DNA of 53,188 bases, from the IMG/VR virus record IMGVR_UViG_3300032236_000387, positions 1 through 53,188 of that record; one strand, 5' to 3'. The DNA comes from a virus (lineage: Duplodnaviria > Caudoviricetes). The notes beneath the pieces are model-generated. The model saw only the letters and a list, made by a program, of their open reading frames with translations, was not told where the DNA came from and made no database searches. Positions 26,986 through 50,540 of the stretch are shown here, in pieces. The position numbers were made by a program, and so were the translations under genes. How positions within the stretch are numbered: the first letter of the stretch is position 1; each line of letters opens with the position of its first letter.

Positions 26986-27459
26986 ATGAAATTGTTTATC
27001 AAAGTTGTTAACGGGCAAACCGTTGACCATCCTGTTTTTGAGGAAAATTTGCTGCAGGCATTCCCAGACGGAATTCCTAGTGAATACGAACCTTTTGAAA
27101 GAATCCAACCAACACAAATTCCAAAGACATATGAAAAATCAATTTGTGAATATGTAAAAAACAACAACGGGGTCTGGAGTGATTCTTGGTCTATTCGAGA
27201 AATGACGGACGAAGAAAAGCAAATCAAAACCAACGAGCTAATTGAAAACGCAGAAAGTTATAAAAGATTTCGGTTGACAGTTGCAAACCGAAACGCTGTT
27301 GTGGCAATGGCCAACTCTGATTTGGCTGCCCTATCCGCTTGGAATTTGTGTATTGAAAAATTAAAAGCATATTCCGTTATATCGGTAGACCCCCTTATTC
27401 CTCCTTTGCCAAAATTACCAATCATGGACGAGTCTGGAAAATGGGTTGAGCCAGAATGA
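26986..27459 (+). CDS. Putative tail fibre assembly chaperone
   Basis: Follows the fibre genes; WSIREMTDEEK motif. Confidence 0.5.
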   Translation: MKLFIKVVNGQTVDHPVFEENLLQAFPDGIPSEYEPFERIQPTQIPKTYEKSICEYVKNNNGVWSDSWSIREMTDEEKQIKTNELIENAESYKRFRLTVANRNAVVAMANSDLAALSAWNLCIEKLKAYSVISVDPLIPPLPKLPIMDESGKWVEPE

Positions 27460-28106
27460 GCGATTCAATTTTTAATATTGAACATTTTGTTTATTTTCCA
27501 TCAAGCATTTCAACCGTTGATGGGTTTGGTTTTTTAGATTTAGTGAGCGCTGTTGCGAATGAAGAGCTTGAAAAAACAAAAATTCAACATCCAAAGTTAG
27601 ACGAAATCTACCCAGTACGCATAACAGGAAACTTGGTTGAAAACGCTCGCTTGCAAGAATTTAATGATTTTGTTGCTACATCCGCTTGGCAAGTCTTGAC
27701 TCATCAAGGCTATGCAACCGAAAACATGGGAATGTTTTTAAGCGAAATATGGGTTCAAGAGCACCACAAGCATTCTTTAATGGAACAACACGTCCATGGC
27801 TCAGGATTGCAAATGATTGGATTTTACTTTTTGAATGCGCCAGAGAATTGTTCTAAAGCTATTTTTCACGACCCGCGTCCCGGTAAGGTTCAAACAAACC
27901 TTCCAGAAAAAGATGTCTCTCAAGCCACTTTTGGTAGCAACATGGTAAATTTTTCTCCAAAACCGGGAATGTTACTGTTGACCAATTCTTGGCTTCCGCA
28001 TTCGTTTACTCGTCATGCATCAGAAGAGCCTTTGTTGTTTGTGCATTTGAACCTTGGGGTTCAATTTGGCATTAGACCATCTACGCAGTCGGCAGAAGTT
28101 ATTTAG
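27456..28106 (+). CDS. TIGR02466/2OG-FeII_Oxy_5-like double-stranded beta-helix oxygenase, paralog A
   Basis: WVQ...HVH...GFYFL...FHDPRP...PKPGMLLLTNSWLPHS. Confidence 0.8.
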   Translation: MSDSIFNIEHFVYFPSSISTVDGFGFLDLVSAVANEELEKTKIQHPKLDEIYPVRITGNLVENARLQEFNDFVATSAWQVLTHQGYATENMGMFLSEIWVQEHHKHSLMEQHVHGSGLQMIGFYFLNAPENCSKAIFHDPRPGKVQTNLPEKDVSQATFGSNMVNFSPKPGMLLLTNSWLPHSFTRHASEEPLLFVHLNLGVQFGIRPSTQSAEVI

Positions 28107-29795: not shown

Positions 29796-30232
29796 TGGAC
29801 TTGCTGGGGATCGGCAACATCATTGAGGGTGTTGGGAAGATTGCCGGTGATTTGATCACCACTGATAAAGAGAAAATGACCCTTGAGTTGGAGGGGCGCA
29901 AACTTGATATCGAACAAGCGAAGGTCGAGCAGACAACTGATCTGGCCCAGATTGAGGTCAACAAAATCGAGGCCGCGTCGAGCAGTTTCTTTGTCTCTGG
30001 ATGGCGTCCTGCTGTGGGTTGGCTTGGTGTACTTGGTCTTGCTTATCAGTACTTGGGTTATCCCCTGATGCAGTGGATTTGGGCGTTTGCACAAGGGATG
30101 GACTGGATACCAAAAGGATTACAACCACCTCCGGATCTTGAAACAGAACAGCTTATGGTTTTGCTTTCTGGTCTGCTCGGGTTTGGTGGGATGAGAAGTT
30201 TTGAGAAGTCCAAAGGAGTCGCGTCGAAGTAG
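29795..30232 (+). CDS. Holin of the 3TM (GTA-type) family
   Basis: EAASSSFFVSGWRPAVGW...GLLGFGGMRSFEKSKGV. Confidence 0.88.
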   Translation: MDLLGIGNIIEGVGKIAGDLITTDKEKMTLELEGRKLDIEQAKVEQTTDLAQIEVNKIEAASSSFFVSGWRPAVGWLGVLGLAYQYLGYPLMQWIWAFAQGMDWIPKGLQPPPDLETEQLMVLLSGLLGFGGMRSFEKSKGVASK

Positions 30233-30235
30233 CAA

Positions 30236-30252
30236 GTGTAATCGGATTACAC
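30236..30252. promoter_or_regulatory. 17-bp palindrome, site 4, between lysis and tail-adaptor genes
   Basis: GTGTAATCGGATTACAC. Confidence 0.85.
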
Positions 30253-30304
30253 CCTTGTGATTCATTGATGTCAGTGGGAAAATGCCTATAAAGATGGGGA
30301 AACT

Positions 30305-30949
30305 ATGACGACATTCGCACCCTCTTGGGTAATGACCTATGATTCGCTGACATCAACGGTCCTACAGTATCTTGAACGTACTGACACGGCGGTCGTTAAC
30401 GCTATTCCTACGTTCATCACGCTTGCTGAATTTGAGATCGCTCAAGAGATCAAGACGCTCGGGCAGCTACAGGTTGTAGGCTCTACCCTTACTGCAGGCA
30501 GTCCAACGCTCCAAAAGCCTGCTAGGTGGCGTAAAACGGTATCTATGAACCTGACAACCAGTTCAGGATCTAGGTCGCCGATTCTGCTTCGCAAATACGA
30601 GTATCTGGTCAACTATTGGCCAAAAAATTCTAGTACTGGGCAGCCTCTGTACTACGCGGACACTGATTGGGACCATTGGTATCTGGCTCCAACGCCTGAC
30701 CAAGCGTACACGTTCGAGGTGCTCTACTACGAACGGATCGCTCCGTTAAGCTCGACCAATCAAACCAACTGGTTGACCCAAAACGCTCCGACCGCGATGT
30801 TGTTCGGCACGCTCTTGCAGGCGATGCCTTTCTTAAAAAACGATCAGCGAACAATTTTTCAGCAGAAATACACTGAAGCCATTCAATCGCTTAAGACTGA
30901 GGACGTGGCTCGCGTCGGTGACCGTCAGTCAATAGCCGTGGACTCATAA
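30305..30949 (+). CDS. Tail adaptor (tubular protein A-like)
   Basis: MTYDSL...IPTFITLAE...LAPTPDQAY...NWLTQNAP pattern. Confidence 0.75.
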   Translation: MTTFAPSWVMTYDSLTSTVLQYLERTDTAVVNAIPTFITLAEFEIAQEIKTLGQLQVVGSTLTAGSPTLQKPARWRKTVSMNLTTSSGSRSPILLRKYEYLVNYWPKNSSTGQPLYYADTDWDHWYLAPTPDQAYTFEVLYYERIAPLSSTNQTNWLTQNAPTAMLFGTLLQAMPFLKNDQRTIFQQKYTEAIQSLKTEDVARVGDRQSIAVDS

Positions 30950-30950
30950 T

Positions 30951-32213
30951 ATGACTACCTCTTACGTCAATCCGTACACGGGACAGACGGTCAGCCCATC
31001 GCAGGTTGGCTACGAAAGTCTCACGATCAGCACTGACACAATCCTTCAGTGGCCAATAAATGGCACCACTGGATATGTCGTTGCCAACATTATCGATGTT
31101 GTAGCTACGGCCAGCGGGTTGAATCTTTACCTACCCGTGGCCAGCGCAGTATCGGTTGGTCAAGCGTTCATCATTCGGAACATCGGGACGGTATCTCAGT
31201 ATTCGTTCACGGTTGTCAATAATGCTGGCACCACGATCATCAATATTCCGGTTGCTCCGACAACCTCGACTGTCAACACTTATTACATTTACCTCACTGA
31301 CAATTCGACCACTTATGGAACGTGGTCAACAATTGCCATGGGGATTGGTACTTCGGCTGCAAACTCGGCAACTCTTGCCGGGTTGGGTCTGAAGGCAATT
31401 ACCAATACGTTGAATTCAAACCTTCCAGTAACGACCAATCCATCAACTGGATACACATTTACTGCGTTGGATAGGGCAGCGCTATATGTATGGTCGAGTG
31501 GCGCAGGAACCCTAAATTTACCAACCGTGGCCAGTGTTGGTGCCGGGTGGTTTGTAGCCATCAAAAATGATGGAACAGGAATTCTTACGGTTGCTCCGCA
31601 AGGTGCAAGTAAAATTGATGGAACGGCAAGTTCGGTTCAGATTCAAATTGCCAACTCAAGCGTGTTTGCAACGGATGGGACCGATTGGTACACCTATGCA
31701 TTGGCGCAGACAAACGTATTCAACTACACCCAGTTGTTGCTAAGTGTTACTGGCGCTGCATCGACAATTACATTGACTGCGGCACAGGCAAAAAACGTCA
31801 TCCAAAATTATGCTGGGACGCTTTCTTACAATACAACCATTTATTTGCCGCAAACCGTTCAGTTGTATTCGATTAAAAATTCAACAAGCGGTTCTTATAC
31901 GTTGAGTTTTGCTGTTTACGGAGTTAGCGGCGGAACAACAATTTCGGTTTCTCAGGGAACCAACGCAATTTTGATTTGTGATGGCACGAACGTATACAGC
32001 GGAACGTCGTCCACGCAAAGCTTTGCAACATCCTTGACAGTTGGAAATGGATCTGCAGCGGCACCATCTGTAAACTTCTCTGGTGATTCAACCACCGGGA
32101 TATTCTTGGCCGCATCTGGTCAACTTGGGTTTGCAGTGGGCGGTGTATCTGCAGGAGCGGTTACAGCAAGTGGACTGTTGCTTACGGTTGGCATCAATAG
32201 CGGTACGTTCTGA
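30951..32213 (+). CDS. Tail structural/fibre-base protein
   Basis: Beta-rich; GSAAAPSVNFSGDSTTG motif. Confidence 0.7.
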   Translation: MTTSYVNPYTGQTVSPSQVGYESLTISTDTILQWPINGTTGYVVANIIDVVATASGLNLYLPVASAVSVGQAFIIRNIGTVSQYSFTVVNNAGTTIINIPVAPTTSTVNTYYIYLTDNSTTYGTWSTIAMGIGTSAANSATLAGLGLKAITNTLNSNLPVTTNPSTGYTFTALDRAALYVWSSGAGTLNLPTVASVGAGWFVAIKNDGTGILTVAPQGASKIDGTASSVQIQIANSSVFATDGTDWYTYALAQTNVFNYTQLLLSVTGAASTITLTAAQAKNVIQNYAGTLSYNTTIYLPQTVQLYSIKNSTSGSYTLSFAVYGVSGGTTISVSQGTNAILICDGTNVYSGTSSTQSFATSLTVGNGSAAAPSVNFSGDSTTGIFLAASGQLGFAVGGVSAGAVTASGLLLTVGINSGTF

Positions 32214-34774
32214 TGACGATTAAAGTCGCAGTACTTCAGGTTGGCGCTGGAATCCAGCGAGATGGTACAGTATTTGCCGCTCCAACTTATGTAGATGGCC
32301 AGTGGGTTCGATTCCAGTACGGTCGCCCCAGAAAAATGGGTGGTTATTCTGGTGCATTTTTGAATGCACAGGGAATCAGCCGAGGAATGATTCTTAGTTC
32401 TCAAAACGGTCAAACGTGGGTTGTGTCCGGGTTTAACAACGGACTACAGCAATGGACAATCAATAACGATGCTGCAATTGGTACGGGTCCAACACAGATT
32501 TATGTGATTGGCTCGATTACAACGTCGTCAATTACGTCTGCTGGTGCCGGGTATGTTGCAGGTACTTATACTGGAGTGGCTCCTGTTACGACCAGTGGTA
32601 ACGGTACTGGAGCCACCTACACCGTGGTGGTTTCTGGCGGAAAAGTAACGTCAGCCACTTTAACGGCTAGTGGAAACGGATACGGATATGGCGATACGTT
32701 CAGCTTTGCAAACTCAGATATTGGTGGGAATTCGCTATCTTCAGTAGCGGTAATCGGAACGGCTGGGCAATTTTCCTGCACTGCTACAACCACCCTTGTG
32801 GCTGGTCAAACGGTTATTGTTACGGGTACTTTGACTGGCACGGCAACCGGCGTGTCGTCTGGAACGTACTACGTCATTACTGGCGGAACCACGTCGTTTA
32901 CGTTGTCGAATACGCTAGGTGGCACAGCAATTACCACGACGGCTGGAACCACCACGGGGCTGACATTTAACCCGGTGAATGCGTTTCAAGGGACTATAAA
33001 TTCGGTCACATATTACGGTGTGAACGTAGCCCCATCGAGCAATTATTTTCAATCAAGCTCCAGCACTCTTTGGCAGTTTGACTATGGATATGATCCGTCA
33101 GGGACTGGAAATAACAATCTGATCGCGCATCCGGGGCAGAATCTTCAATACATCGACAGCACGACCAATACCCGACCGCTGATTGGTCCGTTTACCGGAA
33201 CTGCTTTGACTCCGGTTGGTGTTTTTACGGCCACCGGGACGACGACCAATGGGTCACCTAACGTCACGTTCTCAAGCATCAATGTGGCCATGGGCGCGGG
33301 GGTTAGTGTCAGTGGGACGGGGATACCGTCAAGCACGAAAATTGTTTCGTCGAACTACGTCAGCAATAGCTTCAATCTGGCCGGGGTTGCTGTTACCGGG
33401 ACCGCAGGCCAATTCTCTTGTAGTGCCACTACGCTTACGTCCGGTCAGGCAATCACGGTCACCGGCACGCTGACAGGCAGCGCCACGGGCATCGCCGCGG
33501 GAACCTATTACATCATTGCCACAAACGGAACAACGACCTTCACGTTGTCGAATACATCTGGCGGGTTTGCAATTGTCACGACTGCTGGAACGACCGCTGG
33601 GTTGACGTTTACCGCGTTCGTAGCCAGCACATGGACCGTGGTTCTCAGCGCCAATGCGACTGCGTCTGGAACCGTCACATTGACCTTTGACAACAACATC
33701 AGCGTGTCTGGTGGTGTTGTGATGTTGTACCCATACTTGTTTGTCTATGGCAACAACGGGTTGATCCAGAACTGTTCTGCGGGAAACTTTAACAACTGGA
33801 CTTCGGCGGATTCAAACGCCAACAACGTGGCCTCTACGAAGATCGTGAAGGGGCTTCCACTGCGAGGTGGTACTACGTCACCGGCTGGGCTTTTTTGGAG
33901 CCTAGACGGCGTTATACGGGTCACCTATGCCCCGCAGGCTGTAGGCACGTCCACAATCTACTGGCGATATGATCTGGTCACACAGCAGTCATCTATCATG
34001 TCCAGTTCGTGTGTGATCGAGTACGACGGAATTTATTACTGGGCTGGGGTAGATCGATTCTTGATGTACAACGGCGTTGTTCAAGAAGTGCCCAATACCC
34101 AGAATCTAAACTGGTTTTTTGATGGACTCAATACGTCACAACGCCAGAAGGTGTGGGTCAGCAAAATTCCGAGGTGGGGCGAGATCTGGTGGTTCTATCC
34201 TCGGGGTAGCGCGACTGAATGCAACGACGCCATCATCTATAACATCAGAGAAAAATGTTGGTATGACGCCGGGTTGGCCGATGGTGCCAATCGATCTGCA
34301 GGCACGTTTTCAGAAGTGTTCAAAAAGCCGGTGTGGGCTGGCGACGTGGCCAACTCCACTGGCAACTACACTTTGTGGATTCACGAGCAGGGAACCGATC
34401 AGATTTATCTGAACAACGTAAATGCCATCAACTCGTACTTTGAAACGAACGTCATTGGTACGGGCACTGGGCTGGTGGGTACTGCAAGTGGCCTTGGGGA
34501 TAATTTGTGGACTCGTCTGGAGCGTGTTGAACCTGATTTTGTTCAGTCTGGCCAGATGAGTTTGACGGTCACGGGTAAAGGTTACGCGGATGATGTAGAT
34601 CGAGCCTCAACGCCCTATGTTTTTGATGCATCCACCCTTAAAATAGACATGAAGGAACAGCGCCGGGAGATGCGGTTGCGGTTCACCAGCAACACCCAAA
34701 ACGGGAATTACTTCATGGGCCGGGTGGTGATGAGTGTCGATACTGGCGATGTCCGCGGAACGGCAAACCCATGA
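32213..34774 (+). CDS. Tail nozzle/stabilisation protein (tubular protein B-like) with inserted beta domains
   Basis: GQWVRFQYGRPRKMGG N-terminus; FLMYNGVVQEVP...WGEIWWFYP...YNIREKCWY. Confidence 0.75.
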   Translation: MTIKVAVLQVGAGIQRDGTVFAAPTYVDGQWVRFQYGRPRKMGGYSGAFLNAQGISRGMILSSQNGQTWVVSGFNNGLQQWTINNDAAIGTGPTQIYVIGSITTSSITSAGAGYVAGTYTGVAPVTTSGNGTGATYTVVVSGGKVTSATLTASGNGYGYGDTFSFANSDIGGNSLSSVAVIGTAGQFSCTATTTLVAGQTVIVTGTLTGTATGVSSGTYYVITGGTTSFTLSNTLGGTAITTTAGTTTGLTFNPVNAFQGTINSVTYYGVNVAPSSNYFQSSSSTLWQFDYGYDPSGTGNNNLIAHPGQNLQYIDSTTNTRPLIGPFTGTALTPVGVFTATGTTTNGSPNVTFSSINVAMGAGVSVSGTGIPSSTKIVSSNYVSNSFNLAGVAVTGTAGQFSCSATTLTSGQAITVTGTLTGSATGIAAGTYYIIATNGTTTFTLSNTSGGFAIVTTAGTTAGLTFTAFVASTWTVVLSANATASGTVTLTFDNNISVSGGVVMLYPYLFVYGNNGLIQNCSAGNFNNWTSADSNANNVASTKIVKGLPLRGGTTSPAGLFWSLDGVIRVTYAPQAVGTSTIYWRYDLVTQQSSIMSSSCVIEYDGIYYWAGVDRFLMYNGVVQEVPNTQNLNWFFDGLNTSQRQKVWVSKIPRWGEIWWFYPRGSATECNDAIIYNIREKCWYDAGLADGANRSAGTFSEVFKKPVWAGDVANSTGNYTLWIHEQGTDQIYLNNVNAINSYFETNVIGTGTGLVGTASGLGDNLWTRLERVEPDFVQSGQMSLTVTGKGYADDVDRASTPYVFDASTLKIDMKEQRREMRLRFTSNTQNGNYFMGRVVMSVDTGDVRGTANP

Positions 34775-35016
34775 TAACGTATGACCCCAGAGGGATGACG
34801 TGGGATCAGTACTGCAAACTGATGGCCGAGTTGTTTGCCGGTAACCAACTGGGGTTTGTCGGCGAGGAAAATTGGCGGCAGTGGGTAGACGGGATGAACG
34901 GGATTGGATACTTCGTTCAGTCTGGAAATCCTGACCATCGTCCGTATGAGAACTGGCAAGACTGGGCGATGGCTCTTGCTGGAATAATGTCAATCCAGCC
35001 AACACTCAATCCATAA
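34771..35016 (+). CDS. Hypothetical tail-module protein (81 aa)
   Basis: ATGA-coupled; Trp-rich. Confidence 0.7.
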   Translation: MITYDPRGMTWDQYCKLMAELFAGNQLGFVGEENWRQWVDGMNGIGYFVQSGNPDHRPYENWQDWAMALAGIMSIQPTLNP

Positions 35017-35017
35017 A

Positions 35018-35389
35018 ATGCAACCATCAGAAATCATCAACGCAGACTCGCAACAGAGAGGCTTGGACCCTAAAGCGGTTCTGATTTCTGTACGGCAGAT
35101 TTTAAAAAACGGTGGGCACTTGCTGCACGCCGGTAACACTGCGTTGTTGCTTCAAAGGATTGGTCCGCAGGTCTTTGCCACTCATCTATTTACGAGTGAT
35201 CAGCCTATAGCTTTATCACGGGCGATGATTCAATTCTTTCACCAAATTTCAGGTCAAGGAATTCATCGTCTTTATGGGAAGGCGGACAATGTTCAAATTA
35301 TTCAACTTTTGCAGAATTTGACCAAAGGGGTGAGTGCAACCATGCATCCATCTGACCGTCCCGAATACAACTGGATGATTCAATTATGA
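35018..35389 (+). CDS. Hypothetical protein, possibly degenerate GNAT-like fold
   Basis: Occupies the slot before ejection genes that often holds an acetyltransferase-like protein. Confidence 0.5.
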   Translation: MQPSEIINADSQQRGLDPKAVLISVRQILKNGGHLLHAGNTALLLQRIGPQVFATHLFTSDQPIALSRAMIQFFHQISGQGIHRLYGKADNVQIIQLLQNLTKGVSATMHPSDRPEYNWMIQL

Positions 35390-37392
35390 CTAGTTATTCG
35401 GGAAGCGCTGGTAGGCAAAACAAAGGCGCAAAGGTTGTCAGTTCGTACAGCGGTGCTGGTCAGATCGTTAATGGTCAGGGCATTCGTGATTATCACGGCG
35501 GCGGAGCAATTGTTCACATTGGTCTGGCTCTGTTGGATGTCGCCACTGGTGGAGCCACGGCGTTTCTTTGTGCTCTTGATGAAGCATCAGATGCTGCGTG
35601 TCTGATTGATGCGGCGGCAAACTCGTTTGAAGCCATTGATAATGTAACTGGTCTTCCTTCTGAAGTAGCAAGCACATTTACTCCCGGCGACTTTATTGCC
35701 AATCCATGTTGTGCTTTTAGTTTTGGATGCGATGCAAGGGCTGGGCTGTCTTGTGCTAGTCAGGTAGGTTCTTCAACGAACGCAGCTGATGGCGCGAGCA
35801 CAATTGGATGTGATGCCAGAGCAGGGATGACTTGCACTGTTAATGGCGGTTTATCTACTTGCACCGTTACTGGCGGTTCTGCAGCTTGCACTGTAAACGG
35901 TGGATTGCCGTCGTCTTGTACAGTGGGTGGTGGGGCTGCGGCTTGCACCTTGTCGGGGGGATCGGTTAATTGCACCCTGTCTGGCGGTGCCGGGAATGAC
36001 ACTTTCAACTGTGACACAGTTGATTCTGGATCTAAATGTGACACGCTAAAAGGCGGATCCGAATCTTGCACGTTGCAGGGCGGCTCTGGAAACGACACTC
36101 TTTGCGCGTGCTGCACTAACTGTTGCTGTGATTGTTGCAACTGTGATTGCTGTAAATGCGATTGCTGTAACTGCGATTGTTGTAACTGTGACTGCTGTAA
36201 ATGCTGCTGTGATTGTTGCAATTGCGACTGCTGCAACTGCGACTGCTGTAACTGTGACTGCTGTAATTGCTGCTGTGATTGTTGTAATTGCGACTGTTGC
36301 AATTGCTGTTGCGATTGCTGTAACTGCGATTGCTGCAATTGTTGTTGTGACTGCTGTAATTGCTGTGACTGTTGCAACTGTGATTGCTGTTGTTGTGATT
36401 GCTGTTGCGACTGCTGCTGTTGCGACTGTTGCTGCTGTGATTGCTGCTGCTCTGATTGCAAATGCAAATCGCACAAGTGCAAGTCCAAAAAATGCAAGAC
36501 CAACTGCAAACCTGCAAAAGCCGGTTCAACGACGACTAATATCAATCAACCCGCACAAACTTTTTTATGCGGAAAGGCAGATGTTTTGACCAATCGCGGC
36601 GGAAATTACAGTGCTGATCAACTTCAAGGATTGAAGCAGATCGGAACTGAGGCTCTTCCAACTGCTCCCAATATGGGAGGTCTTGGTTTTGCGGAAGCAG
36701 GAACGGTAAAAGCAGATGTGACGCAACAACCATCGAAGGTTGAAAGTCTGAACGATTTGACAAAGCTTTCTGATCCGTTTAACGACAAAGCATTTTGCAC
36801 TGCTCAGTTCAATGCTAAATATGTAGAGGCTCCACCAGAGATGTTGCACAACACTGGCGTTGGAAATAAAGCGCCCGGATTGTCGTCATTGAAGCAAATC
36901 CACCAGTCAATTGTTGGTCACGCTGAAGGTGGTCTGCCGCATAAGTATGCAGCGGCAGCACCCAAGGGGCATAAACCAGAGTTTGTGACCGGGTTGACCG
37001 GGTACTACGCTTGTGGTGGCGGCACGGGACAGTCGGATGATATTCCGGCAATGCTGCATGACGGAGATTACGTCATGGATGCTGAGACAGTGTCTGCGCT
37101 TGGTGACGGTTCCAGCAAAGCAGGTATGCACGTTTTGGAAGGTTTCCGTAAACAGATACCTCATAAAGCTGGCGGAGGGTCAAACCCGGTTCCGGCCAAA
37201 ATCGCTGATGGAGAGTATGTGTTCCCGGCTGCGTTTGTCACTTCCCTCGGCGGAGGTAACAATAAGAAGGGTGCAGAAATTCTTGACGGTTTACGAGAAA
37301 AGTTGCGAGCACATAAGCGAGGCGCTCCATTGGATTCAATCCCACCAAAAGCAAAATCCCCGATTGACTACATCAAAAAGGGTGGTAAGTAA
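35386..37392 (+). CDS. Putative internal virion protein with RTX-like repeats, a Cys-rich run and a duplicated DIPAML-x-DG(D/E)YV domain
   Basis: Single 668-aa frame; C-terminal GTGQSDDIPAMLHDGDYV and VPAKIADGEYV. Confidence 0.8.
   Translation: MTSYSGSAGRQNKGAKVVSSYSGAGQIVNGQGIRDYHGGGAIVHIGLALLDVATGGATAFLCALDEASDAACLIDAAANSFEAIDNVTGLPSEVASTFTPGDFIANPCCAFSFGCDARAGLSCASQVGSSTNAADGASTIGCDARAGMTCTVNGGLSTCTVTGGSAACTVNGGLPSSCTVGGGAAACTLSGGSVNCTLSGGAGNDTFNCDTVDSGSKCDTLKGGSESCTLQGGSGNDTLCACCTNCCCDCCNCDCCKCDCCNCDCCNCDCCKCCCDCCNCDCCNCDCCNCDCCNCCCDCCNCDCCNCCCDCCNCDCCNCCCDCCNCCDCCNCDCCCCDCCCDCCCCDCCCCDCCCSDCKCKSHKCKSKKCKTNCKPAKAGSTTTNINQPAQTFLCGKADVLTNRGGNYSADQLQGLKQIGTEALPTAPNMGGLGFAEAGTVKADVTQQPSKVESLNDLTKLSDPFNDKAFCTAQFNAKYVEAPPEMLHNTGVGNKAPGLSSLKQIHQSIVGHAEGGLPHKYAAAAPKGHKPEFVTGLTGYYACGGGTGQSDDIPAMLHDGDYVMDAETVSALGDGSSKAGMHVLEGFRKQIPHKAGGGSNPVPAKIADGEYVFPAAFVTSLGGGNNKKGAEILDGLREKLRAHKRGAPLDSIPPKAKSPIDYIKKGGK
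36103..36507 (+). repeat. Cys-rich low-complexity repeat, mostly (CCNCD)n
   Basis: About 135 codons, roughly two-thirds Cys in the core, mixed TGT/TGC, GAT/GAC, AAT/AAC codons. Confidence 0.95.
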
Positions 37393-37394
37393 AA

Positions 37395-38525
37395 ATGCCT
37401 AATAGTCTTACTCAGTCGTCGCAAACTAAATCGACGTGCGCCCCGCAGTACTACAACGATTACCTGCAAGGGATCGTTCAAAAGGGTCAACAGGCAGAAT
37501 GTAAAGCTCAGTATGTTGGAGCCACGCCTCTCCAACAGAAAGCTTTTACGGACATCTGTAAGACCGCTGGAGCGCAAGCGCCAAATTATGCGACTGCTCA
37601 AGGATATGTTGGGTGCGCTGCAGGAAAAGACATTTCTGGTGCCGCCACTCCATTCCTGACTGCCGCAACCTCGGCAAGTCCATTGTGCGCGGCCAAGCCA
37701 CTAATTTGCCAATCTTCCAATCTAAATTTAGGTGAAGTCGCTGGGCAGTACATGAACCCATTTATCAGATCTGCCGTACAGCAGATGTCGGATATTGGGC
37801 AGCGGAACATTATGCAGAACATTGACCCGGCAGCAATGGCCGGGTTGGTTGGTTCTGGGCAGTTTGGCTCGCAACGCGGTGCCCAAGTTATGGGGCAAGT
37901 TAACGCAAACGCAGAGCAGGATCTGAATAGTCAGATTGCCAATATGCTTTCGTCCGGGTACGGGCAAGCATTACAGGCCGCTGGAACCAAACAAGGTGCT
38001 TTGACCAACCTTGCAAACACCACGGCAACGGCGCAGCAGGCACAAAATGCTGCGGAAAATACTGCGGCTACCACGGCTGCAAATGCTGCTGCAGCGTGCG
38101 CTACGGCGAAGGAACGAGCGGGTCTAGCAGCAGGCACGTTGGCCGGTCAAGCGGCGGCAACCAACATCAATTGCATTAATGCGCTGGCTACGCTTGGCGC
38201 TCAGTGTCAGACCATTAAACAAAACGCCCAGTGTTACGACTTCAACAAGCTTTCAAAAGAAGCTGCGTTGATGCAAGGCGTCAGTGTTCCGACATCAACC
38301 AAGACGACGATGTGTATGTCTCCGTTGTCTACGGCGGCATCTCTGGCATCGATTGCAAAAGGTGTGGCCTGTAGCAAGGGGTTGTCTTGTGCGTTATGTA
38401 AAGCGTGGTGCAAAGTTTCTAGCATTTTTGGATGTCATGCCAGAGGCGGTCTGATTACGGCAGGCGGTGCCGTGGGTTGCCGATCTACTCGTAATCTTGG
38501 CGGTCTACCGCGTGGGGGAAGATAA
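37395..38525 (+). CDS. Putative DNA ejection/internal virion protein (Ala/Gln-rich)
   Basis: YMNPF...GQFGSQRG...SGYGQAL pattern; unusually many Cys. Confidence 0.7.
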   Translation: MPNSLTQSSQTKSTCAPQYYNDYLQGIVQKGQQAECKAQYVGATPLQQKAFTDICKTAGAQAPNYATAQGYVGCAAGKDISGAATPFLTAATSASPLCAAKPLICQSSNLNLGEVAGQYMNPFIRSAVQQMSDIGQRNIMQNIDPAAMAGLVGSGQFGSQRGAQVMGQVNANAEQDLNSQIANMLSSGYGQALQAAGTKQGALTNLANTTATAQQAQNAAENTAATTAANAAAACATAKERAGLAAGTLAGQAAATNINCINALATLGAQCQTIKQNAQCYDFNKLSKEAALMQGVSVPTSTKTTMCMSPLSTAASLASIAKGVACSKGLSCALCKAWCKVSSIFGCHARGGLITAGGAVGCRSTRNLGGLPRGGR

Positions 38526-40369
38526 TGGCCGAGAAACAGGATTATTCAGCCGCGCTAGGTGGACTTGATAACTCTAAGCTTCCACTCTATGGGCGCGGTG
38601 ATAAGGATCTCGAAGAGCTTCAGAAAGCTCGGGAAGACGCCCTATCCGCGCTCCAGAAGCGATATGAGCAACCCAACTGGTTCAAGGTAGCGGCAGGGTT
38701 TGCCAAGCCGCAGCTAGGCGGTTTTGCGGCGTCTCTGGGTAGTGCTGCCGAGGCGCTCGGGGAGAATGTCGAGCAACAGCGTGCCCAAGAACTTCCGATT
38801 GCTCAGATGAAGCTGGCGATCAAGCAGGGCAATATGCTGCTGAAGTCTCAAGCAGATGTGGCTGATGACATCAAGAAGTGGCGAGAGTCGCACCCCGGTC
38901 AAACGCCATCGGCTCAACTGGTTGGTGAGTGGGCTGCACGCGCACCTGAGTCGAACACGGTTAAGTCTCTGCAGGAAGAACTGAATTTTCAGCAAAAACA
39001 AGCACAGCAGACATTGGAGCGCATCAACCACAAGAGGGCTGCGAATATTCCGTTGGATGAGCAGGATCGAGCATTCCTTGCTCAGAAACCTGAAGGCCAG
39101 CCACGGGCAGAAAGGCCACAAGAGGCTCCTGCAATTCCGTCCGGACCTGCCGCGACTTCTGCGATAACCCCGCCCAAGCTTGCGATGGAACCAGTCAATG
39201 TCACTGAACCATCAAAACCTGAAGTAAAACAGGAAGAAAAAGCATCAGCCGTGCTTCCTAGTGGGGCACGGGTTAACAAGGATGTTCTTGGTTTGCATCA
39301 GCAGGGTATTCCGATCATCAGTAACATCCGGACCCAAAAAGAACAAGATGCGCTCAAGCACCATCAAGATGAAAATGGCAACTGGTACACCAAAGAAGGC
39401 CGACCAGTATCGGATGTTACAAAGCATTTGACTGGTGATGCGATTGATCTTGATCCAAAGAAAAATCTCAACGCGGAGCAACGAAAGCTACTCGAAGAAA
39501 ATGGATGGAAGCAGCCCAACCCCAAGGGAGATGCGAACCACTGGGAGCGTGTGAAGCCAGCCAAACTTGCAGAGGCCAAGCCTGCACAAGTAAAACTCGA
39601 TGAAAATAAACCGCCCCAGTTTTATCCGCCGAGTTTGAAGAAGCCAGACATTACCGGACTTGGTCCGGACGATGTGGCCATGAGAACTGCTGGGTACAAG
39701 AAAAGCGCAGAAGTGATGGAGACTCCTTACGCGGAAAAAATGGCCAGCTTGGCTCCTCTTGTTTCTGGGAATGACTATACCCGTGTCAAAAATTCATACG
39801 ACACTGCGATTGGAATGATTGAGAACAACCAAGATATGGCAAAAAAAGTTTTTGCCATGTTGCGTCAAGATCCAATCAAGGCTGCTCTTAACGAAGGTAT
39901 CGGTGTTCATGCCGGGTCGATCACGGCCAACATTAACTTACCTGTCAAGGCGTTTTTAGATGCCGGTCTAAGCGAAAGAGAAAAGCACTACGCAGATAAA
40001 TTGTTTAGTTCTTTGGTGAACATTGCAACGGCCAACTTACGAGCGCAAGGCGTATCAATGGGCAAGGTGCCGCAGCAGGAATACATGAAGGCAATGTCTG
40101 GGTTTGTGAACCCGGATCTGACTGCTCCTGCTGCTTTGAATATGCTTCATCACAGCCGTGCTGATTTTGATCAGAGCAAAGAGTATTACGACATTGTCAT
40201 GAAGGAAATGAGGGACAAAGTCGATATGTCACACACTTCGACTCCATACTCAGACATTCATCATAATTCGTCCGACTTGGCCAAGATTCACAAGAAGTAC
40301 TCTGCGATTCACAAACGATATGATGATGACTATCAGAATGCGTTAAGACCGCAAGGAAACAAACCATGA
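38525..40369 (+). CDS. Internal virion protein with a peptidase M15-like (Zn peptidoglycan hydrolase) domain
   Basis: ISNIRTQKEQDAL...TKHLTGDAIDL...DANHWE (H-x6-D...H). Confidence 0.7.
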   Translation: MAEKQDYSAALGGLDNSKLPLYGRGDKDLEELQKAREDALSALQKRYEQPNWFKVAAGFAKPQLGGFAASLGSAAEALGENVEQQRAQELPIAQMKLAIKQGNMLLKSQADVADDIKKWRESHPGQTPSAQLVGEWAARAPESNTVKSLQEELNFQQKQAQQTLERINHKRAANIPLDEQDRAFLAQKPEGQPRAERPQEAPAIPSGPAATSAITPPKLAMEPVNVTEPSKPEVKQEEKASAVLPSGARVNKDVLGLHQQGIPIISNIRTQKEQDALKHHQDENGNWYTKEGRPVSDVTKHLTGDAIDLDPKKNLNAEQRKLLEENGWKQPNPKGDANHWERVKPAKLAEAKPAQVKLDENKPPQFYPPSLKKPDITGLGPDDVAMRTAGYKKSAEVMETPYAEKMASLAPLVSGNDYTRVKNSYDTAIGMIENNQDMAKKVFAMLRQDPIKAALNEGIGVHAGSITANINLPVKAFLDAGLSEREKHYADKLFSSLVNIATANLRAQGVSMGKVPQQEYMKAMSGFVNPDLTAPAALNMLHHSRADFDQSKEYYDIVMKEMRDKVDMSHTSTPYSDIHHNSSDLAKIHKKYSAIHKRYDDDYQNALRPQGNKP

Positions 40370-41325
40370 CCGATCAAGAAAAGGAAGATCAAGAGGCCGC
40401 TGAAGCTGCTAACGAGTATTTTCGGGAACAACATCCTCATCACGCTGAAAACAACAAGAATGTTTATTCCGGAATGTCTTTTGAAGACAAAAAGGAAGAG
40501 CCAAAAAAAGAACCTGCTCCTGACTGGATGGTGCCTGCGGGTGCCGCAACTGGCGCTGCTGCAGTTCACACCGATGCACTTCGTCGTTTTCTAAGTGGAG
40601 TTGCAAAGCCAGCCGAATCAGTCTACGCGCCGGTAAATGTTCAACCGCGGTACAGTGCTCCTCGCGCAGAACCAGCAATGGGTGGGCTTAGTTCTGTCGA
40701 GTTCGAGAGCAATGTTGACAAGATCATGCATAGCTTGAGGGGCGAAGGGCAACCCAGCGGTGAACAGAAGCGTAAAGGTGCCAACTGGAAGACCAACCGG
40801 GAAGCTCTGGCAACTGAGCACAATCTGAAACAACCCGGCGCTGGGCAGGCAATCGTGAATGCCGGTGAAATGGCTCCAACACGAGGTGGCCTTGCAGTTC
40901 CAGAACACGTCGCATATGAGATCGAGGAAGAGGAATTGCGGCGTCGGGCAGTAGAGCAGGCAAGGCGCGAGGAAGCTGCAGCGTTAGCTAAAGCACAAGC
41001 AGAGGCCAGATCTGCCGAGACGGCACAAATGAGAGCGGCTGCCGAGGCGAAAGCTGCTCAACAAGGGAAAGCACTTGGTGTTCTCAAAGGTGCGGCCAAG
41101 GTTGGTTTAGGCGCTCTTGGCGGAGCGTTTGCAGGCAAAGACTTTTACGATGCCTACCAAGAGTACAAGGCCAAAGGGTACAGCGACGAAATGATTTCCA
41201 AGCTTCTATCTGGAGCAGGTGGAACCTTAATGATGGTTCCAACTCCATTCACTGAAGTTGGAGGGGCTGCTTTAATGGGGGCTGGGATGGCGTATCCCCA
41301 CGTTGCGAAACGCCTACGGCAGTAA
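40366..41325 (+). CDS. Putative internal virion protein with a C-terminal Gly/Ala hydrophobic region
   Basis: Last gene of the structural operon. Confidence 0.65.
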   Translation: MTDQEKEDQEAAEAANEYFREQHPHHAENNKNVYSGMSFEDKKEEPKKEPAPDWMVPAGAATGAAAVHTDALRRFLSGVAKPAESVYAPVNVQPRYSAPRAEPAMGGLSSVEFESNVDKIMHSLRGEGQPSGEQKRKGANWKTNREALATEHNLKQPGAGQAIVNAGEMAPTRGGLAVPEHVAYEIEEEELRRRAVEQARREEAAALAKAQAEARSAETAQMRAAAEAKAAQQGKALGVLKGAAKVGLGALGGAFAGKDFYDAYQEYKAKGYSDEMISKLLSGAGGTLMMVPTPFTEVGGAALMGAGMAYPHVAKRLRQ

Positions 41326-41392
41326 ACCAGACGTACAGCATCGCCACAAGTACAAACAGAAACCAGTATTTCACGATCTCTCCTCGGTATTT

Positions 41393-41419
41393 CCCCCGGC
41401 TGGTGCCGGGGGTTTTTTT
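41393..41419 (+). terminator. Rho-independent terminator at the convergence point
   Basis: CCCCCGGC-TGGT-GCCGGGGG-TTTTTTT. Confidence 0.9.
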
Positions 41420-41640
41420 CACTTGAGCTTGGGTCTGATTTCTTTGATTTTTGTGGCCACCAAGTGGTTGTACTCTTGGGCAATGGACACGCAGGTTTCA
41501 AGCTCTTTCGCTTCTATTCTTGGTTTGGCCTTCTCGATGAAAAGGTTGGCCAACTTGAATAGATCCTCTTCGAGAAAGTTGTAGTTCTCGATGAGGTGAG
41601 CCTCGCGGAATACCTCGTTAACTTCATCCTTTGTCAGCAT
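41419..41640 (-). CDS. Hypothetical protein (73 aa, MLTKDEVNEV...)
   Basis: GGAG RBS upstream of the ATG at 41640. Confidence 0.65.
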   Translation of the reverse strand: MLTKDEVNEVFREAHLIENYNFLEEDLFKLANLFIEKAKPRIEAKELETCVSIAQEYNHLVATKIKEIRPKLK

Positions 41641-42430
41641 ACTGATCTCCAAAATCGTGTTTCAATTTCCACAGTTTCAATAGGCACTGGAACATTTCCC
41701 AGCCTTTTCGTAGCTTCTCTTCCGGCCACTCAAAGACAACAACCAGACCCGGATGAGTCACCGATGCGAAGACGTTAGCGCACCGGGCATGAGACAAGTT
41801 AAGACCATGCCGGTAGGCAGCTAACTGCATCAGGTTCTCGTCATAGGCGTTGATTTCATCGTCGGGGCCAAATTCCTTGGTCTTGGCATCAACGACAATC
41901 CCGACCGGCGCTGTTTCACTTTGGACGCAGTGCAGGTCAACTTTGCCGCCGTACCCCATGGGGCTGGCAAACGACTTCTCAACTTTCCATTCCTCGAACG
42001 GATGGGTTCCAAAATGATCAAACACGCTTTCTTCAAAAGCTTTCGCAATTTCGACGTGTTCGACCTTACGGTTACCGGAGTACCATTTTTCAATCGACTC
42101 ATGAACTCTGGTTCCCCGCTCTGCTGCGCTTTTTCCTGTTTCTTTTGAGTCCGCCTTAATACGAGCGATCAGGGACTTCTCAGTCTCGTTAGGGGTCCGC
42201 GGCAGGGTCAGAGCAGCGAGAAGCATTTGTTCGAGCTTCCACTCCTCCAGACCCGGTTTGTGCAGCAGTCTGTTGATCGTGGTGACCGATGGCACCAGAT
42301 TCATCTTGCGTGCATCACGCAGCGTTGTAGGGCGGTTTGAACCGTCTTTAGCCAGCACGGTGTACTGAGGGGAGCCATCCCCCCCGTACCAATGAGCCGA
42401 GTCGAACGATCTTGCGATGATGGTGGTCAT
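41624..42430 (-). CDS. PD-(D/E)XK (RecB/Cas4-like) exonuclease
   Basis: PSVTTI...RGTRVH...E...YGGKVDL...VDAKT...QLAAYR. Confidence 0.85.
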   Translation of the reverse strand: MTTIIARSFDSAHWYGGDGSPQYTVLAKDGSNRPTTLRDARKMNLVPSVTTINRLLHKPGLEEWKLEQMLLAALTLPRTPNETEKSLIARIKADSKETGKSAAERGTRVHESIEKWYSGNRKVEHVEIAKAFEESVFDHFGTHPFEEWKVEKSFASPMGYGGKVDLHCVQSETAPVGIVVDAKTKEFGPDDEINAYDENLMQLAAYRHGLNLSHARCANVFASVTHPGLVVVFEWPEEKLRKGWEMFQCLLKLWKLKHDFGDQYADKG

Positions 42431-49592: not shown

Positions 49593-49889
49593 ATCCCGCT
49601 GAGTTGGACGCGCACTGGCAGTAGCGACTCAGGGACACCCCTACTACGGGAAAGATGCTGAGACAGGGGAAAGGGTGGCGAAGATAGCGCCCTTGCATCG
49701 AACGGCTGTCGGGTCATGTGGCTCCGAGGAGAACATGAGAAGGCAGATCTAGGAGGGCTAGGTCTGTCCACCAAAGAGAACAGTGAAGAGAAGTGATTGA
49801 AAGTAATTGACAGTAATTGGGCCGAGCGCCCATTTTTTTTTACTGAAACCCAAACTTTGTGTTAGACTGTGGTGATCAAAGGAGAGATC

Positions 49890-50540
49890 ATGTCGGACAC
49901 ACTTGAGGAATTTCACTACTTCACGTCGCCGGTTTACGCGGTCAAGAAACCTGAGTTTCTGGACGTTCTGAGGGCTGTGTCGGCCAAGTACTTGGCGAAA
50001 TCCAAGGCCAGAAAGAAAACGACCAAGCCGATCACGGTGATGACGGGGAATTTTGCGACTGATCCCGCGGTGGCTGCGTTTGCCCAGTATGTCTCGCAGA
50101 GCAGTTGGAACATTCTGAACGCGCAGGGATATGCGGCGGACGACGTGGTGACGTACTTCAAAGAGATGTGGTGTCAGGAACATAATTTTATGAGCCATCT
50201 TGATCCGCACTTCCATGGGGAGGGTGCCCAGATGGCTGCGTTTTATTTTCTGGATGTGCCGATCAAGAGTGCGAAGCTTTTGATCCATGATCCGCGGGAT
50301 GCCAAGATCATGGCGTCGTTGCCTGAGAAGAATCCCAAAGTTGTGTCGCCTGCCGCGCACAAGGTTGTCCTGACGCCGCAGGAGGGTACTCTGGTGATAT
50401 TCAATTCGTGGATGACGCACTCGATTTCCCGGCATCTGAACCGAGAGAAATCGATGCGGTTCATCCACATGAACCTTGGCGTTGCTCCCGCGGTGAAGCA
50501 GCGCAAAACCGTCAAAGAGCCATCAGTGGAGATCATATGA
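49890..50540 (+). CDS. TIGR02466-like oxygenase, paralog B
   Basis: WCQEH...HFH...FYFL...IHDPR...PQEGTLVIFNSWMTHS; AAGGAG RBS before the ATG at 49890. Confidence 0.8.
   Translation: MSDTLEEFHYFTSPVYAVKKPEFLDVLRAVSAKYLAKSKARKKTTKPITVMTGNFATDPAVAAFAQYVSQSSWNILNAQGYAADDVVTYFKEMWCQEHNFMSHLDPHFHGEGAQMAAFYFLDVPIKSAKLLIHDPRDAKIMASLPEKNPKVVSPAAHKVVLTPQEGTLVIFNSWMTHSISRHLNREKSMRFIHMNLGVAPAVKQRKTVKEPSVEII

Follow-up and report, generated by a model that had tools for sequence, protein, structure and literature searches.

A nonapeptide array in RTX register with cysteine at the aspartate position, in a cysteine-rich putative ejection-module protein of a podovirus-type phage

The RTX beta-roll is the textbook example of a fold that cannot exist without bridging calcium and aspartate. 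Dense CC, CxC and CxxC patterns are found in metallothioneins and in keratin-associated high-sulfur proteins, the latter of which have repeats like C-C-x-P-S-type pentapeptides and act through disulfide cross-linking, and the antifreeze protein of Tenebrio molitor is a disulfide-braced beta-helix with a 12-residue period and two cysteines per coil. Among podophages, gp14-gp16 of T7 are ejection proteins. A review of RTX proteins describes them as nearly free of cysteine, places Asp residues 18 apart at 4.8 A from each other, and states that any side chain at position 4 would collide with the carboxylate of Asp6 (PMC6891781). For the pre-ejectosome of cyanopodophage A4 (gp26-gp29), an intermolecular disulfide between two ejection proteins and basic residues that contact DNA have been described (PMC12002296).

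The window analysed here, that is the whole stretch of 53,188 nucleotides, is a complete, podovirus-type genome of 53 kb, from an uncultured phage that only metagenomic sequence represents, in which no tRNA genes were found and genome scans detected no tail-tube or sheath genes. The genes relevant to the comparison are:

30305..30949, + strand: adaptor gene (Pfam PF24175 SU10_adaptor, E 3.5e-27)
32213..34774, + strand: nozzle gene (PDB 8zkk_O 'nozzle gp16', E 1.8e-6; phrog_3287, virion structural protein)
35386..37392, + strand: gene of protein P0001, an open reading frame of 668 aa with a stop-free translation over 35386-37389
37395..38525, + strand: downstream gene of 376 aa with 17 Cys (4.5%), whose Cys content follows that of the P0001 homologues

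The adaptor and nozzle genes are followed by same-strand open reading frames of 81, 123, 668, 376, 614 and 319 aa, and in MW202545 the gene order is identical, the block closing with a gene named transglycosylase by the depositors. P0001 resembles podophage ejection proteins in the place of its gene, in the block that comes straight after the adaptor and nozzle genes, as well as in its hydrophobic N-terminal segment and in a basic stretch that follows a block of cysteines. Judged by gene place and family, P0001 is likely an internal virion or ejection-module protein, which would be packaged into the particle and ejected. A literature search retrieved no described ejection protein with a cysteine content like that of P0001, in which 102 of the 668 residues (15.3%) are Cys, compared with 0.86% in the 45 other open reading frames of the genome. 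Within P0001 the following parts were delimited, sub-feature coordinates and position-6 assignments being counted manually from the translation:

35506..35577, + strand: hydrophobic Gly/Ala-rich segment (about residues 41-64), kept in the sub-family and aligned across 13 homologues
35725..35832, + strand: N-terminal flank of the array, with two copies of a 10-residue Gly/Cys/Asp/Ala/Arg motif that are 27 residues apart
35833..36102, + strand: RTX-register nonapeptide array (residues 150-239), 11 units with Cys at position 6 in seven and Asp in four
35983..36006, + strand: first canonical unit, G-G-x-G-N-D-T-F (residues 200-207)
36079..36102, + strand: second canonical unit, G-G-x-G-N-D-T-L (residues 232-239), within the best Pfam stretch, 219-239
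36103..36501, + strand: poly-Cys block (residues 240-372), directly after the array and with a Lys/Cys-rich tail at its end
36745..37389, + strand: conserved C-terminal domain (residues 454-668), from alignment A1 and AlphaFold

The top Kyte-Doolittle 19-mers of P0001 (1.4-1.7) fall in the segment at about residues 41-64, and a membrane-inserting helix is a possible reading of this segment. In the flank of the array, AlphaFold places a strand at the second copy of the Gly/Cys/Asp/Ala/Arg motif. The poly-Cys block contains 82 Cys (62%), 21 Asp, 14 Asn and 9 Lys in its 133 residues; its cysteines are encoded by 47 TGC and 35 TGT codons, and at the DNA level it has tandem periods of 15, 36, 45 and 66 bp.

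The C-terminal domain comprises two tandem hairpin-plus-helix units with a D-G-[D/E]-Y-V-type motif in each (about nt 37000-37110 and 37183-37299), and alignment A1 of this domain has 60 invariant columns among 61 sequences. AlphaFold modelled it with a mean pLDDT of 70.4. The domain has no Pfam match even at E 10, and its fold gave no Foldseek match at E<=0.001 and a best VIA Z of 3.0; neither these structure searches nor the search of PDB sequences matched P0001 to a solved ejection protein. It does match phrog_6090 and, weakly at the profile level (E 0.0049), the tape-measure protein 8zdo_S. P0001 is like phage tape-measure proteins in the short motif G-x-G-T-G-x-S-D...G-[E/D]-[F/Y]-[I/V], which occurs twice in 8zdo_S; unlike them, it shares just this motif of about 35 residues and is encoded in a genome with a podovirus-type adaptor and nozzle. 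A protein search returned one metagenomic genome and weak motif matches in Caulobacter phages, one of the matched genes being annotated as tape measure. In the ESM Atlas, the nearest named cluster is a crAss cargo-protein domain (0.84), which we treat as a lead only, and a megablast of 30000-42000 for named phages returned nothing. The C-terminal domain is common to 80 viral loci and 1,558 protein clusters. P0001 thus belongs to a large, unnamed family with a conserved C-terminal domain and a hypervariable centre, which varies in length and composition, is Cys-rich, Pro/Thr-rich or Asp/Ala-rich, and ranges from Cys-free to about 22% Cys.

A preliminary description of this DNA had quoted a string of RTX-like repeats with Cys in place of the calcium-binding Asp. 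The string is exactly residues 150-239 of P0001 (nt 35833-36102), the part that was elided being one more irregular 9-mer, and the two canonical GGxGNDT(L/F) units that it contained are present in the translation. Units of 9 or 10 residues and of the type C-T-[V/L]-x-G-G-x-x-x follow one another with Cys-to-Cys spacings of 9, 9, 10, 9, 9, 13, 9 and 10, the array being interrupted and irregular after unit 6. Position 6 is Cys at residues 150, 159, 168, 178, 187, 196 and 228 and Asp at residues 205, 210, 219 and 237; two of the Asp units are canonical and the other two have Cys at position 5. Residues 100-245 contain the pattern C-[T/D]-[LVIF]-x-G-G 7 times, as compared with a mean of 0.015 and at most 2 when the residues of that stretch were shuffled 20,000 times.

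The RTX register that had been proposed is borne out by a BLASTP comparison with the ordinary RTX protein P0005, in which 53% identity was obtained over 62 residues with Cys opposite Asp (pairwise E 8e-12, although repetition inflates the E-values of comparisons with repeat proteins), and RTX is the only likeness that emerged from Pfam and from large protein searches, word-indexed as well as exhaustive. Pfam HemolysinCabind scores 23.8 bits on whole P0001 at a cut-off of 23, single stretches each being below the cut-off. A search of 1.84 billion representatives with the array gave 2,425 matches at E<=1e-3, and PF00353 was present in 12 of the 12 array matches obtained from 5.8 billion proteins. 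Features shared with RTX/HemolysinCabind (PF00353) are the period of 9, G-G at positions 1-2, a hydrophobic residue at position 8, Thr at position 7, where it is also the commonest residue in RTX (42%), and the two fully canonical units. In contrast to RTX, Cys replaces Asp6 in 7 of the 11 units, Gly4 and Asn5 are missing from those units, Val equals Leu in frequency at position 8, and the carrier is a phage structural-module protein and not one of the type-1-secreted bacterial proteins.

For reference, 5,600 RTX units were collected from 162 sequence relatives (the best 150 of the 2,425 matches and the 12 from the 5.8 billion proteins). All relatives in this set carry Cys-poor arrays of canonical Asp-type units, with a mean Cys content of 0.075% against the 15.3% of P0001. 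Position 6 is Asp in 95.8% of the reference units and Cys in none of them, so that Cys at the Asp position, as described initially, is real and essentially without precedent in RTX arrays; a literature search likewise yielded no publication describing Cys-substituted RTX repeats. What has happened is not a simple exchange of Asp for Cys, as Gly4 and Asn5 of the calcium loop have gone along with Asp6. Within the array, Gly4 and Asn5 are kept only in the two canonical Asp6 units; position 4 of the Cys units is taken by S, A, V or E, and the 10-residue unit has one extra loop residue. Gly4 is found in 84.8% of the reference units, and in ordinary RTX units its frequency falls from 87% to 0-14% where position 6 is T, L, V, S or I.

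If the array were a calcium-binding RTX beta-roll still, its cysteines would be tolerated substitutions, and the two canonical and two further Asp-bearing units that remain, together with a Pfam sequence score just above the gathering cut-off, would be in line with this. However, the calcium loop is gone from 7 of 11 units, no Cys occurs at position 6 among 5,600 natural units, and the canonical units are 32 and not 18 residues apart and therefore, by the geometry described in PMC6891781, would share no site, which makes continued calcium binding very improbable. Equally improbable is an enzymatic oxidation of the cysteines (to sulfinate or sulfonate), or another modification of them, that would mimic Asp, as the preliminary description had also considered, and restore calcium binding. 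The presence in the genome of two 2OG-Fe(II) oxygenase-like genes, at 27456-28106 and 49869-50540 (phrog_81), is circumstantial evidence for such a modification, but nothing ties these genes to P0001, and phrog_81 itself has been classed with auxiliary metabolic and host-takeover genes. Moreover, Gly4, which according to PMC6891781 is required to be free of a side chain beside a calcium-binding carboxylate, is missing from the Cys units.

At the invariant C, T, G and G columns of the seven units, 54 of 84 comparisons show a change of synonymous codon; the x positions are free to vary, and as a DNA repeat the array shows only 2.3 detectable copies. Because the conserved residues use different synonymous codons, the array does not stem from recent slippage; it is under constraint at the amino-acid level. 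In contigs of the independent metagenome run X2, which span 35741-35938 (7 differing letters) and 35968-36125 (5 differing letters), the array is found at about 97% identity, and the two differences listed within it are both third-base synonymous; run X4 spans 35999-36129 with 13 differing letters. The poly-Cys block of the strain variants diverges to other repeats, with loose ends at 36137 and 36436. The array recurs in these independent contigs and is therefore no artefact of the assembly of a single sample. Long open reading frames do cross the repeat in other frames and on the minus strand, and yet it is only the + frame that joins the conserved N-terminus to the C-terminal domain, both here and in homologues with centres of other lengths; a wrong frame, a wrong strand or a misassembled repeat can thus practically be dismissed as the origin of the array.

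The array was found neither in 80 related IMG/VR viral loci nor in the best 120 family proteins of the 1,558 clusters. Metagenome contigs queried with the array segment gave 484 pattern matches and no relative, and two consecutive C-T-U-x-G-G units, searched as a DNA pattern, had 0 matches in IMG/VR. DNA-pattern scans of IMG/VR and metagenomes returned no comparable array. Across these loci, family proteins and scans the array is a singleton, and it is not essential to the function of the family.

AlphaFold2, used without an alignment, predicted short strands centred on C-T-[V/L], one per unit (segment residues 50-54, 59-63, 68-72, 78-82, 87-91 and 96-100). The confidence of this model is low (mean pLDDT 44.8, pTM 0.44, zero residues >=70), and a Foldseek search with it gave no match at E<=0.001; 4 of its 9 rows were RTX entries, each with E above 4. 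The strands every 9 residues lend weak support to the beta-roll-like solenoid that had been suggested.

The low AlphaFold confidence, the irregularity after unit 6, the hypervariable length and composition of the family centre, and the lack of the array in the other members covered (80 loci, best 120 family proteins) would all suit an RTX-like stretch that was acquired or arose once and is now a disordered Cys/Gly/Thr-rich linker, with no beta-roll and with cysteines that follow the composition of the spacer. We nevertheless regard such a vestige as rather unlikely, because C, T, [V/L], G and G are kept column by column despite saturated synonymous change, because an independent sample whose adjoining poly-Cys block has switched its repeat type keeps the array at about 97%, and because Gly4 is kept only alongside canonical Asp6, which resembles structural covariation.

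The explanation that we prefer, at a probability of roughly 0.45, is that the array is an RTX-type solenoid without calcium binding, situated within a putative thiol-based (disulfide or metal) cross-linking spacer. Residues 150-239 would form an RTX-type nonapeptide solenoid module, either RTX-derived or convergent, in most turns of which the calcium site would be gone, with Gly4, Asn5 and Asp6 exchanged en bloc and Cys in place of the Asp, and in which the determinants of turn and strand (G-G, Thr7, hydrophobic 8) would be retained. This module would lie in the central spacer of a podovirus-type ejection-module protein, directly ahead of the 62%-Cys block. In a beta-roll, position-6 residues 18 apart would stack about 4.8 A from each other, so that the cysteines would line up as two short ladders on the roll's edges. 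Their thiols would hold the module together or tie it to the poly-Cys block and to the Cys-rich neighbouring protein, the links being disulfides and/or metal-thiolate bridges that would replace the calcium-carboxylate bridges. The disulfide that joins two ejection proteins of cyanopodophage A4 is a precedent. A regular roll would have three Cys per edge, an odd number for a closed ladder, and this counts against a disulfide ladder. The break in the array after unit 6, the low AlphaFold confidence and the lack of a Foldseek match at E<=0.001 also speak against the preferred explanation.

The array stands alone as an insert in a hypervariable centre that is hyper-Cys-rich in some family members, and its cysteines are therefore most simply seen as part of a wider cysteine chemistry. 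Among 68 distinct homologues (two loci, L038 and L040, whose extracted open reading frames have 5 residues, are excluded from the family counts), 29 have at least 20 Cys, 39 have at most 10 and 14 have none, and because of these latter two groups cysteine chemistry is dispensable for the family. There are homologous columns with Cys in Cys-rich and Asp in Cys-free members (7 of 15 and 5 of 14 filled columns). The Cys fractions of a homologue and of its downstream gene are correlated (rho 0.89, n=53, excluding 9 incomplete downstream open reading frames and 4 loci with none found), but it has no phylogenetic support, as control for phylogeny left only 1 independent pair on supported branches (54 rows, 170-residue tree). 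A literature search found no paper on hyper-Cys-rich phage virion proteins.

P0001 is similar to metallothioneins and keratin-associated proteins in its dense CC, CxC and CxxC patterns, and some of its homologues have C-C-x-P-S-type pentapeptide repeats. Unlike in metallothioneins, the 62% Cys over 133 residues is far above the share known for those proteins, and the block is one domain of a protein of 668 aa; the Pfam scan of P0001 showed no metallothionein family. The likeness of the Cys block to metallothioneins and keratin-associated proteins would be convergent. With the antifreeze protein of Tenebrio molitor the array would have in common a short-period solenoid with Cys and Thr in its coils, but its period is 9/10, there is one Cys per unit and no sequence match, and the Tenebrio protein is absent from the Foldseek rows for the array.

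A more far-reaching version, which we consider unlikely, is that the fold-on-arrival of RTX has been rebuilt on sulfur instead of calcium. The Cys-laddered beta-roll and the poly-Cys block would pass the tail unfolded and, once in the host envelope, would zip up via disulfide or soft-metal bridges, which would ratchet the ejected protein or make it rigid, and Asp-based and Cys-based spacers would be interchangeable across the family. Such interchangeability fits the columns that have Cys in Cys-rich and Asp in Cys-free members.

A natural array with RTX geometry and Cys at the ligand position would test another chemistry for this scaffold and would be a template for redox- or metal-switchable repeat proteins; should it be a decaying insert in a disordered linker, it would be a curiosity only. 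The wider context is perhaps weightier, as the swings in Cys content within the family and the cysteines of the neighbouring gene point to unexplored thiol chemistry in phage-injected machinery, of which PMC12002296 provides the one solved example, a single disulfide in the pre-ejectosome of phage A4.

Seven matches were on MAG-binned contigs, 4 beta-proteobacterial/Burkholderiales, 1 Bacteroidetes, 1 Hyphomicrobium and 1 Saccharibacteria, the binning of phage contigs being a weak hint at the host. A looser three-unit DNA pattern detected 6 loci in IMG/VR, all of which are perfect simple DNA repeats with frames broken by stops, and the two-unit pattern detected 32 loci in metagenomes, almost all of them short frames or simple repeats. 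Three bacterial metagenome open reading frames (L092, L105 and L118) contain just two C-T-U-x-G-G-type units each, and the metagenome open frames L098 and L112 have a different perfect repeat, made of Cys, Leu, Tyr and Gly.

The viral genome of 53,188 bp, which is complete and bounded by direct terminal repeats, contains the gene for P0001, the carrier of the Cys-substituted RTX-like array, with the following features:

35386-37392, + strand: P0001 gene, an ORF of 668 aa
about residues 41-64 of P0001, + strand: conserved N-terminus with hydrophobic Gly/Ala-rich segment
between hydrophobic segment and array, + strand: acidic/Ala stretch
35833-36102 exactly, + strand: RTX-register array, residues 150-239 (translation)
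36103-36501, + strand: poly-Cys block, residues 240-372; 133 residues with 82 Cys (62%), 21 Asp and 14 Asn
36745-37389, + strand: conserved C-terminal domain (alignment, AlphaFold)
37395-38525, + strand: gene following the P0001 gene, 4.5% Cys

The array starts with six C-T-[V/L]-x-G-G-x-x-x units, one being a 10-mer, continues with a shortened 4-residue unit and two irregular units starting with C-D-T, and ends with one further Cys unit and a last D-T-L; its Cys-to-Cys spacings are 9, 9, 10, 9, 9, 13, 9 and 10. This translation reads identically to the repeat string quoted in the preliminary description, and two units indeed retain the canonical G-G-x-G-N-D form. Residues 100-245 of P0001 contain 7 instances of the motif C-[T/D]-[LVIF]-x-G-G, compared to a mean of 0.015 and a maximum of 2 in 20,000 shuffles of the same segment.

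The sole Pfam family detected in P0001 was HemolysinCabind, whose 23.8 bits exceed the cut-off (23) for the protein as a whole but for no individual stretch. When 5.8 billion proteins were searched by word index with residues 1-245, 12 matches were obtained, all with PF00353 (best E 1.6e-9). Exhaustive phmmer analysis of 1.84 billion representatives with residues 100-245 led to 2,425 matches at E<=1e-3 and 286 at <=1e-10, E-values that are inflated through summation over repeats, and the best 150 of the 2,425 were mostly very long proteins dense in canonical Asp-type RTX units. In BLASTP, the array aligned to an ordinary RTX protein with 53% identity over 62 residues and with Cys opposite Asp; in this register, 7 units have Cys at position 6 of G-G-x-G-x-D-x-U-x (U, hydrophobic) and 4 have Asp. 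Among 5,600 reference units from 162 RTX relatives, anchored only by G-G, the hydrophobic position 8 and the following unit, position 6 was Asp in 95.8% and never Cys, and the strict motif G-G-x-x-x-C-x-U occurs 5 times in P0001 versus once in all 162 relatives together. The alignment and these counts thus confirm, at the sequence level, the array and its RTX register with Cys at the place of Asp, and Cys-for-Asp at position 6 is a very rare substitution. A review names few or no Cys as characteristic of RTX proteins (PMC6891781). Neither Cys-substituted RTX repeats nor phage virion proteins that are hyper-Cys-rich were encountered in a literature search covering few subscription journals. The array is a new variant of RTX-type repeat, a singleton of putative function.

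The Cys units are not the product of a mere exchange of Asp for Cys at position 6, as Gly4 and Asn5 are also gone: both are kept solely by the two canonical units, and position 4 in the Cys units is S, A, V or E. In reference units, Gly4 accompanies Asp6 in 87% of cases, versus 0-14% when position 6 is T, L, V, S or I. According to the same review, RTX Asp residues 18 apart are stacked at a distance of about 4.8 A with calcium as the bridge, and a side chain as small as a methyl group at position 4 would already clash with the Asp6 carboxylate that binds calcium (PMC6891781). The Cys units have thus given up the whole calcium loop, retaining G-G of the turn as well as T and U of the strand. 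The earlier interpretation, a beta-roll retuned to soft metals or disulfides or with Cys modified to resemble Asp, is supported in part, for register and Cys position. The array is very unlikely to bind calcium still, and it is just as improbable that its Cys residues, standing where Asp would, are oxidised and mimic it. The array might instead be an RTX-type solenoid module with thiol chemistry in place of calcium bridges; these thiol bridges may be disulfides or metal-thiolates, which are inseparable here.

AlphaFold2 modelling of residues 100-245, performed without an alignment (none exists), yielded a mean pLDDT of 44.8 and a pTM of 0.44, with short strands at segment residues 50-54, 59-63, 68-72, 78-82, 87-91 and 96-100, one on every array unit and centred on x-C-T-U-x. 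Foldseek found no match for this model at E<=0.001, and 4 of its 9 weak rows were RTX entries. The strand per unit is in favor of the proposed beta-roll, but the pLDDT and the Foldseek result are not, and the model hints at a solenoid fold, no more. In the DNA of the array, a 27-bp period can be traced through only 2.3 copies. Pairwise comparison of 7 units at the invariant C, T, G and G columns showed differing synonymous codons in 54 of 84 cases, while the amino acid varies in the x columns. Because synonymous codons differ at invariant columns and DNA-level copies are few, the pattern argues for duplications that are old and maintained by protein-level selection, and not for recent slippage. 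The main rival explanation, a vestigial insert within a disordered linker, would suit the low pLDDT, less so such selection, and is somewhat less likely than a thiol-based solenoid module.

Contigs matching the array stretch were present in public sequencing runs. Run X1, possibly the source sample of the window, matched the entire stretch with zero differences; the independent run X2 covered 35741-35938 with 7 differences and 35968-36125 with 5, and run X4 covered 35999-36129 with 13. Those X2 differences listed within the array (36060, 36072) are both third-base synonymous. That the array is an artefact is, next to these contigs, extremely improbable. At 36137, within the poly-Cys block, X2 departs from the window into a different Cys/Thr/Asp repeat in the gene frame.

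No other feature of the P0001 gene is as extreme as this block: Cys-Cys-Asn-Cys-Asp-type repeats with a Lys/Cys-rich tail at the end, encoded by mixed TGC (47) and TGT (35) codons, and of a type that differs between strains about 97% identical. Cys amounts to 15.3% of P0001 and to 0.86% of the 45 ORFs other than P0001 and its downstream neighbour combined. The C-terminal domain is common to 80 IMG/VR loci and 1,558 protein clusters, labelled only 'hypothetical' in the sources, and the family centre is hypervariable. Among 68 distinct ORFs (two loci left out), 29 have at least 20 Cys, with a maximum of 148, whereas at most 10 are present in 39, 14 of these having none; Cys-rich centres contain CC-x-CC, C-C-x-P-S-type or C-C-C-D-T-type repeats and Cys-free centres are Pro/Thr-rich or Asp/Ala-rich. 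An RTX-type array was absent from the 80 loci and from the best 120 of the family proteins. An alignment of 14 N-terminal regions (loci including L002, L005, L007, L008, L009, L017 and L021) has 17 columns with Cys in at least 6 of 9 Cys-rich members, where Asp occupies 7 of 15 filled positions in the Cys-free L005 and 5 of 14 in L007. These columns are periodic and lie after the hydrophobic segment (window 35580-35730); the low-complexity alignment is only suggestive of a family-wide Asp/Cys interchange beyond the array. Two metagenome contigs (L098 and L112), retrieved via a two-unit DNA pattern, have predicted open frames (196 and 259 residues, with 48 and 66 Cys) composed of almost perfect nonapeptide repeats in which Cys, Leu, Tyr and Gly abound, a type unrelated to the phage array.

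The C-terminal domain, with 60 invariant columns in 61 sequences, was modelled with moderate confidence (mean pLDDT 70.4) as two tandem hairpin-plus-helix units and is an internal duplication, each unit with a D-G-[D/E]-Y-V-type motif. No PDB fold match was found for it; a motif of about 35 residues is common to the domain, to phrog_6090 and to the solved tape-measure protein 8zdo_S (E 0.0049), where it is present twice.

Cys fractions of the homologues and their own downstream genes were correlated (Spearman 0.89, n=53 related loci within L002-L081). At a 3% threshold, 23 pairs were both rich, 21 both poor, 10 rich in the neighbour only and 0 in the homologue only, and where Cys is absent from one it is absent from the other too. 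Since supported branches provide only one independent pair, relatedness may account for the correlation, and the link is inseparable from shared ancestry.

Upstream of the P0001 gene are located:

adaptor gene, SU10-type (PF24175, E 3.5e-27)
32213-34774: nozzle gene, 853-aa product (PDB 8zkk 'nozzle gp16', E 1.8e-6)

Terminase, portal, head, fibre-like, endolysin and holin genes occur elsewhere in the genome, whose recognised genes do not include any for a tail tube, sheath or tape measure. In T7-like phages, the genes after the nozzle encode internal virion/ejection proteins, and by analogy the position of the P0001 gene fits such a role; sequence and structure searches found no homology of P0001 to any solved ejection protein. 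The array and the poly-Cys block, perhaps with the Cys-rich neighbouring protein, could form a spacer that can be cross-linked within an ejected protein. An RTX-type solenoid with thiol-replaced calcium bridges in such a spacer is our tentative reading (probability roughly 0.45). In the virion of phage A4, two ejection proteins are joined by a disulfide (PMC12002296).

The match of the nozzle homologue to the solved nozzle is confined to residues 575-685, and in its N-terminal half, by eye, a Gly/Thr-rich segment of about 65 residues occurs twice, as an insertion when compared with the 521-aa solved nozzle. Between large terminase and portal, a 1,102-aa ORF (5083-8391) matches only unknown-function PHROGs with residues 138-326. 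Two 2OG-Fe(II) oxygenase-like genes (phrog_81) are located at 27456-28106 (E 8.5e-16) and 49869-50540 (E 4.9e-10).
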